DNA from: Eledone cirrhosa
Lineage: Eukaryota
DNA length: 64,000 nucleotides
Reading direction: 5' to 3'
Assembly (NCBI GenBank): GCA_964016885.1
Contig: OZ024745.1
Coordinates: 32,364,001 to 32,428,000 of the forward strand
In this document: positions 22,561 through 32,425 of the stretch, piece by piece
Layout of the letters: the number at the start of each line of letters is the position of its first letter
How positions within the stretch are numbered: position 1 is the first letter of the stretch
Notes under the pieces: model-generated
The model's input: the letters and a program-made list of their open reading frames with translations, nothing else
The model's database searches: none
Told to the model about the DNA's origin: nothing
Position numbers and translations under genes: made by a program

Positions 22561-22703
22561 AGTGGTAACACAACAGTTAGTTCACCATACCGAGAACAAT
22601 TGTTTCACCTTAGCGGATCCTCAGCTCATAATGGTCATGGTTATAACCATGACCATTACAAGTTGAGGATCCGGTATGGTGAATTAACTGTTGTGTTACC
22701 ACT
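22561..22703. mobile_element. Fold-back element 1 (Penelope-like inverted pLTR derivative)
   Basis: Palindrome centred at 22643/22644; the right arm lacks about 23 nt; adjoins (TA)n; extra direct copy of the arm tip at 22522-22543. Confidence 0.8.
22592..22627 (-). ncRNA. Minimal type-I hammerhead ribozyme motif
   Basis: GAG-CUGAGGA-UCCGCUAAGGU-GAAAC-AAUU-GUU-CUC: 3-bp stem I, short stem II (U.U closing), palindromic stem/loop III. Confidence 0.72.
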
Positions 22704-26545: not shown

Positions 26546-26691
26546 TAGAACTCCAGTTCGGATCCAGCTGTCAAAATGGCCGGAGCTCAGCTGTTGGGGC
26601 CTTAACTCTTTTCCTATTACCCACTCTACTACCCTAAGTATTGAGTACTCTGGTGCGCTATGGTCCACCTGGTATCTTACCACACCCTCTT

Positions 26692-26698
<7 letters not shown>
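26546..26698 (+). mobile_element. TA-targeted short structured element, same family as 11968-12134
   Basis: CAGTTCGGATCCAGCTGTCAAAATGGCCGGAGCTCAGCTG...GGTCCACCTGGTATCTTACCACACC then (TA)n. Confidence 0.72.
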
Positions 26699-26727
<29 letters not shown>

Positions 26728-26761
26728 TAGGATGGATTCAATTTGAAACTGGTTAGACCAT

Positions 26762-26871: not shown

Positions 26872-26883
26872 ATATATATATAT

Positions 26884-27151
26884 AAGCAAATGTATGAGTG
26901 AATGAAGGAGTTACAAGCCATTAAAACAATTCTTTATATAGCTCTTACACGTGTTTCACCCAGAAGAGCTCTTCAGAGGCAGAAGTTCCTATGGTTTCAT
27001 TGGTAAGTATAAATACCGGTGTTTATACTTACCAATGAAACCATAGGAACTTCTGCCTCTGAAGAGCTCTTCTGGGTGAAACACGTGTAAGAGCTATATA
27101 AAGAATTGTTTTAATGGCTTGTAACTCCTTCATTCACTCATACATTTGCTT
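26884..27151. mobile_element. Fold-back element 2: loopless palindrome with 134-bp arms, in (TA)n
   Basis: Arms are exact reverse complements apart from one T/G pair (27014/27021); centre 27017/27018. Confidence 0.92.
27055..27094 (+). ncRNA. Minimal type-I hammerhead ribozyme motif (mirror copy on - strand at 26941-26980)
   Basis: GCCU-CUGAAGA-GCUC/UUCU/GGGU-GAAAC-ACGU-GUA-AGAGC; 4-bp stem II, palindromic ACACGUGU stem III, weak bulged stem I. Confidence 0.8.
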
Positions 27152-27450
27152 ATATATATATATATATTCTCTTTTCTCCTAGTTTATTTTACACCTAATT
27201 CTGTTTAATTGACTGTATCTGGGCGATTACGCTGTCGAAATATTCGATAAATATTCCGTCGTAGCCGACGCGAAGGGCTGGTTTCGGTTATTTGTTGGAG
27301 ATTTCTTCATAGAAGCCTTATTCTTATAGCCTGGTCTATTCGATTTTTTATATAGTTAATTATGCTAATTGGGAGAGGAAATGGTATATATTTTATCTGG
27401 TGATTCTATAGACATGTTTTATGATATATATATATATATATATATATATA

Positions 27451-27769
27451 TCAAAATGAAAATCCGAAGGCAAGGTAAAATTCCAATCATTTAATCACGA
27501 CACATGTTTCAATAAGAGATAGATCGATTGTGAAGCCATGATCGATTATCACTGATCTCATCAGGTGAAAATGAATTGTCTTCAAATTCTTGATATGAGG
27601 GAGAAAAAATAACGATGTTCTCTCACAGAATTCATTCCCTCATATTCATTTTCACCTGATGAGATCAGTGATAATCGATCATGGCTTCACAATCGATCTA
27701 TCTCTTATTGAAACATGTGTCGTGATTAAATGATTGGAATTTTACCTTGCCTTCGGATTTTCATTTTGA
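27451..27769. mobile_element. Fold-back element 3: 126-bp inverted arms, 67-bp spacer, unique tail to about 27910
   Basis: 27451-27576 is the reverse complement of 27644-27769; bounded by (TA)n at 27424-27450 and after 27910. Confidence 0.92.
27646..27733 (+). ncRNA. Type-I hammerhead ribozyme with extended stems I and II (mirror copy on - strand at 27487-27574)
   Basis: UCAUUU-UCAC-CUGAUGA-[47-nt stem-loop II]-GAAAC-AUGU-GUC-GUGA-UU-AAAUGA; canonical core and GUC cleavage triplet (27719-27721). Confidence 0.88.
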
Positions 27770-28132
27770 TACTTATACTCCATTTTACATCATCTGGCTG
27801 TTCCCTTGAATGGAATTGGAGATATACAAAAGCGTGGAGAACTTAATATTGCTAACAAAGTTATTGGAACATTTTACACAACCAATAATGCACCTTACTA
27901 TATAACAACTATATATATATATATATGTATATAAGAAAGAGGGTGAGGTAAGATACTAGGTGGACCACAGCTTAAACCACACGCTAAATATTAACTTCCT
28001 CTAATATTTAACCCTGCTAACCCAAGCATCAAGCGCACCACGCTTCGGCTTTTGGCATTTAGTATTATGTATCGCACCTCTTTGTACCTCTCTGCTTCAT
28101 CCTCTCTTATGATACCTTAACCCTATTATATA

Positions 28133-30800: not shown

Positions 30801-30976
30801 TCTTACTGTTTTGTTTTTCAATTACATTTCAGATATAAAAACCTCTCTTATTTCATATTAGATATTATTCTATATTTACAAAATAAGGTTTTTATAAAAT
30901 AATTCTATGAGAAATTGTTTTGCTAAGAATTTGGTTCAATGACAAGTTATTCAGTGAAAAGTTCTTCTTGAATGTT

Positions 30977-32425
30977 CTAACTATATAGTCTGTCTGTACT
31001 AACTATATAGTCTGTCTGTACTAACTATATAGTCTGTCTGTACTAACTATATAGTCTGTCTGTACTAACTATATAGTCTGTCTATACTAACTATATAGTC
31101 TGTCTGTACTAACTATATAGTCTGTCTGTACTAACTATATAGTCTGTCTGTACTAACTATATAGTCTGTCTGTACTAACTATATAGTCTGTCTGTACTAA
31201 CTATATAGTCTGTCTGTACTAACTATATAGTCTGTCTGTACTAACTATATAGTCTGTCTGTACTAACTATATAGTCTGTCTGTACTAACTATACAATCTG
31301 TCTGTACTAACTACACAGTCCATCTGTACTAACTACACAGTCCATCTGTACTAACTACACAGTCCATCTGTACTAACTACACAGTCCATCTGTACTAACT
31401 ATATAGTCTGTCTATACTAACTATATAGTCTGTCTGTACTAACTATATAGTCTGTCTGTACTAACTATACAACGTGTCTGTACTAACTATATAGTCTGTC
31501 TGTACTAACTATATAGTCTGTCTGTACTAACTATATAGTCTGTCTGTACTAACTATATAGTCTGTCTGTACTAACTATATAGTCTGTCTGTACTAACTAT
31601 ATAGTCTGTCTGTACTAACTATATAGTCTGTCTGTACTAACTATACAATCTGTCTGTACTAACTATATAGTCTGTCTGTACTAACTATATAGTCTGTCTG
31701 TACTAACTATATAGTCTGTCTGTACTAACTATACAATCTGTCTATACTAACTATATAGTCTGTCTGTACTAACTATATAGTCTGTCTGTACTAACTATAT
31801 AGTCTGTCTGTACTAACTATATAGTCTGTCTGTACTAACTATATAGTCTGTCTGTACTAACTATATAGTCTGTCTGTACTAACTACACAGTCTGTCTGTA
31901 CTAACTACACAGTCTGTCTGTACTAACTACACAGTCCATCTGTACTAACTACACAGTCCATCTGTACTAACTACACAGTCCATCTGTACTAACTATATAG
32001 TCTGTCTATACTAACTATATAGTCTGTCTGTACTAACTATATAGTCTGTCTGTACTAACTATATAGTCTGTCTATACTACCTATATAGTCCATCTGTACT
32101 AACTACACAGTCCATCTGTACTAACTACACAGTCCATATGTACTAACTATATAGTCTGTCTGTACTAACTATATAGTCTGTCTGTACTAACTATATAGTC
32201 TGTCTGTACTAACTATACAATCTGTCTGTACTAACTATATAGTCTGTCTGTACTAACTATATAGTCTGTCTGTACTAACTATATAGTCTGTCTGTACTAA
32301 CTATACAATCTGTCTGTACTAACTATATAGTCTGTCTGTACTAACTATATAGTCTGTCTGTACTAACTATATAGTCTGTCTGTACTAACTATATAGTCTG
32401 TCTGTACTAACTATATAGTCTGTCT
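30977..32425. repeat. 22-bp minisatellite, about 65 copies (CTAACTATATAGTCTGTCTGTA)
   Basis: Period 22 read directly; clustered variant CTAACTACACAGTCCATCTGTA. Confidence 0.97.

Follow-up and report, generated by a model that had tools for sequence, protein, structure and literature searches.

A hammerhead motif of type I lies on both strands of the window, which is the whole 64,000-nt stretch of the Eledone cirrhosa genome analysed here. The core of the plus copy is exact, with CTGATGA at 27656-27662, GAAAC at 27710-27714 and GTC at 27719-27721, in the order CUGANGA, GAAA, NUH of a type I hammerhead ribozyme. The motif and the insertion that carries it consist of the following features.

27425-27450, no strand: left (TA)n target microsatellite
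27449-27645, minus strand: inverted partner, 5'-truncated, reaching the short 3' end at about +55 from the cut, with (TA)n behind it; 98.5% identity to L031
27487-27574, minus strand: second, identical hammerhead motif with the element's native upstream sequence
27593-27645, minus strand: hairpin upstream of the hammerhead, -16.3 kcal/mol; a hot spot of truncation and inversion junctions, the window junction included
27644-27910, plus strand: direct segment of the end of an element assigned to the Hydra PLEs, 5'-truncated, which extends as far as the long 3' end (about +195 from the cut in L031 numbering), where (TA)n follows; 95% identity to L031 and 92% to L328
27646-27733, plus strand: type I hammerhead motif comprising the core, stems I to III (47 nt in stem II) and the predicted cut
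27646-27655 with 27722-27733, plus strand: stem I, UCAUUU-UCAC paired with GUGA-UU-AAAUGA, 10 bp with a UU bulge
27663-27709, plus strand: stem II, 47 nt, with 15 pairs (3+2+4+6) predicted by folding
27713-27720, plus strand: stem III, ACAUGUGU, which is complementary to itself (two of the pairs being G-U) and is expected to pair between two monomers
27725-27730, plus strand: ATTAAA hexamer directly past the cut site
27910-27933: right (TA)n target microsatellite

In the predicted fold, mismatches (C-U and U-U) and a bulge of 1 nt interrupt stem II. Its distal helix joins AUCGAU at 27674-27679 to AUCGAU at 27692-27697 around a 12-nt loop (27680-27691). The minus-strand hammerhead has its core from 27564 and C17 at 27499. 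Both copies lie in inverted arms of 134 nt each (27443-27576 and 27644-27777), and since the arms differ only at two positions near the outer end, the two hammerheads are identical. The perfect core, the bulged 10-bp stem I, the 47-nt stem II with its AUCGAU:AUCGAU end and 12-nt loop, and the identical minus-strand copy are found as an earlier note on this DNA had placed them. The motif is of type I, and the predicted cut of the plus copy is after C27721, where that note had put it. Rfam covariance models gave no hammerhead among 88 matches at E<=1 in the 64-kb window. The motif is not a chance occurrence, because there are many near-identical copies in the genome and a relaxed pattern gives 3,626 matches against 93 in controls.

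A 67-nt spacer separates the arms and represents, on the minus strand, native upstream sequence of the element; only the minus-strand hammerhead therefore stands in its natural context. A 161-nt query gave 1,374 first-look candidates in the 3.0-Gb genome of the species itself, and the 40 that were scored show 96-100% identity at their best match. A 21-nt anchor downstream of the cut has 440 exact matches, and the ends of the copies were read for the first 70 of these, which are all on contig C1, two of them from one locus. Direct segments end at +189 to +197 in 64 of these 70 copies. An adjacent inverted segment is found in 28, and 18 of these 28 end at +56. In the upstream hairpin, 18 of the 70 copies start (-148 to -105). 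None of the 70 has its 5' end at the cut site, the nearest starts being -17 and +15. The same layout as in the window is seen in L195. Inverted partners and a one-sided tail are known for PLE insertions (PMC8557442 Fig. 2), and two internal RT start sites have been demonstrated for the element of the green anole (PMC11167929). The presence of the motif on both strands is the usual inverted insertion of a PLE, rather than two independent ribozymes.

Inverted ends of a further repeat (26657-26735 and 27893-27971) flank the cluster, and the sequence of this repeat also follows the element in L031. Both observations suggest that several families have inserted, one within another, into (TA)n tracts that they share. 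Further hammerhead-like sequences occur elsewhere in the window. A perfect palindrome of another repeat family (26872-27163, arms of 146 nt) holds a hammerhead core with a 12-nt stem II on both strands (27059 plus, 26976 minus); its stem III is perfectly palindromic, with a self-duplex of -10.3 kcal/mol. A small palindrome at 22595-22692 contains a hammerhead with an 11-nt stem II and its core at 22624 on the minus strand, which belongs to a very abundant short family dominating the 5-29-nt spacer class of the genome scan described below. At 2675 on the plus strand, a hammerhead-like core with a 13-nt stem II is found without stem I pairing. A tandem array of a 22-nt repeat occupies 30950-32300.

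Upstream extension of the copies leads to a single-ORF element, in which tblastn and motif reading identify an RT followed by a GIY-YIG endonuclease at the C terminus. The full copy L328 consists of a hammerhead, 225 nt, a start codon, the ORF, a long 3' UTR and a second hammerhead, with 4,383 nt from core to core. The hammerhead is thus located about 1.35 kb past the RT/GIY-YIG ORF, and again 225 nt upstream of the start codon in tandem copies; in L328 and L031 this is the pLTR. Across the family, the core is intact in 101 of 129 hits. The ORF carries RWK, DKT, DITMGS, a CNCX5C linker, and CxxC and CxH in the nuclease, with no CCHH and no IFD. These motifs were read by eye in the translations against section 11 and the Fig. 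S1 text of PMC8557442, where RWK, DKT, the CxCX5C linker, the C-terminal GIY-YIG, CxxC and CxH are given as features of the Hydra clade. Insertion into (TA)n, another trait of this clade, is observed as well. The carrier is assigned to the Hydra-clade PLEs by motif comparison and unnamed homologues rather than by a tree with named references. Its nearest named protein relatives are in the octopod Argonauta hians (44-45%) and in cnidarians, among them corals. Pfam recognised none of eight ORF pieces at E below 0.09. An endonuclease tree of 43 rows, mostly unnamed homologues with no published Hydra sequence, and omitting partial endonuclease hits under 85 aa and homologues beyond P0045, does not recover the elements with long stems II as one clade, so that a single origin is neither shown nor excluded.

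Other identities of the carrier were considered. A Naiad PLE needs an N-terminal GIY-YIG endonuclease, while that of the present ORF is C-terminal; Naiad and Nematis are both ruled out by this position and by motifs that are those of Hydra. A non-LTR retrozyme, which is a short non-coding tandem unit, is rejected since the parent is a 4.4-kb coding element. To be noted, in the ORFs of L175, L178 and L328 the RT is followed, and the CxCX5C linker preceded, by long insertions of low complexity; together with the 3' UTR of about 1.35 kb, these make the element much longer than published Hydras.

For the isolated RNA 27640-27740, the best fold is other than the hammerhead and no more stable than shuffled sequences (z +0.76). 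Stems I and II can form, stem III has two base pairs in the monomer, and the hammerhead fold is not the MFE. Its energy is -10.9 kcal/mol, the MFEs being -16.9 and -20.0; it lies 6.0 kcal/mol above the MFE for the plus copy and 9.1 kcal/mol above it for the copy in native context, with energies computed from models that leave out tertiary contacts and Mg2+. A competing hairpin, in which CUGAU of the core is paired with AUCAG at the opening of stem II, has a probability of 0.38-0.46. For stem III, the probability of the A15.1-U16.1 pair is 0.01-0.02 in the monomer, and the self-duplex of two molecules reaches -6.0 kcal/mol. The sequence ACAUGUGU of this stem is present in 113 of 123 family placements, and sister families also retain palindromic stem III centres. 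RNA read through both arms, in either direction, would form a duplex of about 134 bp (-237 or -244 kcal/mol) that buries both motifs. Owing to the weak monomer fold, the hairpin that sequesters the core and this read-through duplex, the window copy is predicted to be inactive unless transcription begins within the spacer. PLE hammerheads of the dimer type are reported to cleave weakly and in tandem only (PMC4209133), and for the anole element cleavage is described only in the presence of protein (PMC11167929). The window motif is real: a PLE hammerhead of the dimer type whose stem II is elongated, inside an inverted fragment that is predicted to be inactive. The view of the earlier note that it is the best candidate for an active ribozyme is not supported: its stem III is of the dimer type, its monomer fold is 6-9 kcal/mol above the MFE, and the hairpin at the start of stem II, the read-through duplex and the weak basal stem II also speak against it.

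Within the family, stem II is mostly kept paired. In an alignment of 56 distinct copies, 96% of cells are paired; of the changes, 31 preserve a pair and 33 disrupt one, and paired columns carry 2.2 changes per column versus 3.7 in unpaired ones. In the two commonest variants, a pair is either retained as U-G or gained at the loop as C-G. No double-sided compensatory change is found among the 56 copies. Alignment of the family copies, which the earlier note had proposed as a check on stem II, thus yields no covariation. Support for the long stem II from sequence variation within the family is accordingly weak, as expected of a young family decaying after insertion, and the 47-nt helix rests on the folding prediction and on the analogy with sister families. 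The stem II insert of the window has a z of -2.6 against mononucleotide shuffles. Its basal helix has three contiguous pairs, placing it at the short and poorly paired end of the range in this genome.

This range became apparent from a genome scan with the pattern CTGANGA-spacer-GAAACANNTGTH, counted against reversed-pattern controls. The figures below are matches and not loci, inverted and tandem copies being counted twice, and the 30-60 and 48-75-nt bins overlap.

Spacer 5-29 nt: 10,086 matches, 48 in controls
Spacer 30-60 nt: 3,626 matches, 93 in controls
Spacer 48-75 nt: 4,709 matches, 86 in controls
Spacer 76-105 nt: 13,599 matches, 68 in controls
Spacer 106-135 nt: 592 matches, 74 in controls

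Spacers of 48-105 nt total 18,308 core matches (154 in controls), compared with the 10,086 short ones. By an eye count, the window family makes up about half of the first 100 matches listed at 30-60 nt. A basal helix of at least 6 bp next to the core is found in 20 of the first 30 matches at 76-105 nt versus 1 of the first 20 at 106-135 nt, and the basal helices of sister families have 6-10 bp. Of the 30 sampled motifs at 76-105 nt, 29 have a self-complementary stem III centre (counting ATGT), 20 have AATAAA or ATTAAA within 20 nt after the cut, and 7 have Hydra nuclease sequence at most 1.5 kb upstream. Full-length Hydra elements with such stems exist, since L323 and L327 carry stems II of 91 and 90 nt in both pLTRs. 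In sequence, the stems II of different families show little resemblance to each other. Hence the long stem II is real, yet not special to the window copy: it does exceed the minimal PLE type, as had been noticed from the window alone, while within this genome it is unremarkable next to sister families whose stems are longer and better paired. As a separate observation, L329 (194-1297) and L330 (185-1041) hold direct pairs of hammerheads with branched stems II of 95-96 nt, 989 and 743 nt apart; no Hydra protein hit was obtained for these pairs, which are possibly non-coding derivatives.

Covariation was analysed in an alignment (A1) of 35 hand-picked sister sequences with stems II of 56-63 nt. 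RNAalifold predicted no pairs on it, and a structure hand-drawn from single-sequence folds was therefore tested instead. In this structure, the paired share of cells is 84%, and a double-sided change occurs in 16 of 26 pairs, including 7 of the 8 basal pairs of stem II. The number of cells with such a change was reached by 0 of 500 shuffles and the number of pairs by 16 of 500, related rows being able to beat shuffles, and controls in which the structure was slid along the alignment were all far lower, a comparison biased by the hand drawing. An all-against-all scan of the columns was uninformative. For the 57-63-nt families no link to an ORF was found, as the upstream query led to an unrelated repeat with Hydra protein hits at 0 of 20 loci; the covariation result thus applies to sister motifs whose carrier is not demonstrably coding. 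The ORF beside L170, considered as their carrier, is that of a different family, whose stem II has 94 nt. L125, L136, L041 and related loci share a conserved internal-loop motif in their 56-63-nt stems II, GAGUC opposite GAGCU, and the distal GAUC hairpin of these families resembles the distal helix of the window stem II.

Taken together, we consider it quite probable that the motif is the hammerhead in the pLTR of a Hydra-clade PLE, that the window copy is an inactive head-to-head fragment of it, and that full-length elements cleave slowly and only as dimers, possibly with the help of a protein. Two hammerheads would pair through their self-complementary stems III. Uncleaved (or re-ligated) element RNA would serve as the template, reverse transcription starting at two internal sites and being primed from both nicked strands of the TA repeat, and the two cDNAs would be joined at the upstream hairpin. 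Two fixed 3' ends are observed about 140 nt apart, and the tail would have about this length. Stem II would be a tolerated and structurally maintained extension past a short basal helix, weaker here than in the sisters. A stronger proposal, which we put forward tentatively, is that stem II of the Hydra-type elements in this genome is a structured domain of 47-100 nt under selection, through which cleavage or RNP assembly is gated; it could, for example, bind the element protein or act as a dimer-docking arm.

It is rather doubtful that the long stem II arose as a neutral insertion and reached its high copy number by drifting along with the element. The lack of covariation within the family and the unlike stem II sequences of different families would fit such drift; the sister alignment, with its paired cells and with double-sided changes in more cells than in any of 500 shuffles, and the contrast in basal helices between 76-105 and 106-135 nt would not. 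Loss of cleavage, with the hammerhead including its long stem II kept as a structural signal for protein binding, RNA dimerisation or 3'-end formation, appears unlikely. It would account for the absence of 5' ends at the cut in all 70 copies and for the ATTAAA or AATAAA past the cut site in many families, and in the anole element hammerhead mutants had no effect on in vitro insertion and no RNA-seq ends fell at the cut (PMC11167929). However, all catalytic nucleotides and an NUH site are kept in unrelated families, which selection for catalysis explains more easily, although part of this conservation is built into the search pattern. An efficient stand-alone ribozyme, in which the long stem II docks with the extended stem I and so stabilises the active fold, as in canonical fast hammerheads, is very improbable: the perfect core with GUC, its conservation in most family hits and the 10-bp stem I with its 2-nt bulge are outweighed by the 2-bp stem III, the unfavourable monomer fold with its competing core hairpin, the three contiguous basal pairs of stem II and the lack of copies starting at the cut. 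Equally improbable is a role of the upstream-pLTR hammerhead, by cleavage or by its fold and served by the long stem II, in cap-independent translation of the ORF, as driven by type I hammerheads in fungal RNA viruses (PMC13725137): the cut does lie 225 nt upstream of the start codon in L328, but three upstream ATGs stand between the cut and the ORF, and for some long-stem families no link to an ORF was found.

The preferred reading, that of a dimer-type pLTR hammerhead of a Hydra-clade PLE, finds its closest relatives in the Hydra elements described in PMC8557442. They share the type I hammerhead near the 3' end with a stem III of the ACANNUGU kind, the C-terminal EN with RWK, DKT and CxCX5C, the (TA)n target, and the inverted truncated partner with a tail. 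Hammerheads in Hydra pLTRs are already published. Those listed in File S2 of that study have at most 24 nt between the core halves; the window copy has 47 nt, and sister families reach about 100 nt. Published Hydras are described as generally under 3 kb, in contrast to the 4,383-nt unit with its long 3' UTR. About 50 nt between core halves are seen in the same file for PLE-X1_sMoe and PLE-X1_sTam, marked as non-canonical; these are EN-minus, rDNA-targeting spike-moss elements with one short helix and a large loop instead of an extended helix. Minimal PLE hammerheads (PMC4209133) similarly have a pLTR location, a weak palindromic stem III, expected action as dimers and opposite-strand pairs 100-700 bp apart. 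Their helices II and I have 7-8 and 4-5 bp, whereas 15 predicted pairs and 10 pairs with a bulge are present here. Poseidon of the green anole (PMC11167929) resembles the present element in two internal RT start sites that define the tail, an AT-rich target and a pLTR hammerhead. It belongs to a different clade, its tail is 30-40 nt long rather than about 140 nt, and its ORF starts inside stem II, while the ORF here begins 225 nt past the cut. A literature search, which covered Lunse et al. 2017 and Arkhipova et al. 2017 (Terminons) through review passages, found no paper on a radiation of long stems II in cephalopod PLEs, although longer stems may be recorded in those two works or their supplements; the available text of bioRxiv 10.64898/2026.07.22.740005 and PMC3088659 holds no case of a long-stem-II PLE. 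The core-only descriptor search in PMC8557442 used a 7-17-nt spacer. Eight half-cores of Naiad, at 35-50 nt, are noted in the same paper.

In E. cirrhosa, descriptors with a 7-17-nt spacer miss most motifs of the scan pattern, and roughly 18,000 motifs have stems too long for published search patterns and outnumber the short ones. The window copy is a dead fragment, among the weaker examples, and matters mainly as a pointer to this genome-wide population. With stems II from 11 to about 100 nt on a fixed core and palindromic stem III, the population offers natural variants for testing what the ribozyme needs. If the long stem II is indeed a selected domain, PLE hammerheads would form a class far larger and more elaborate than the one catalogued so far.
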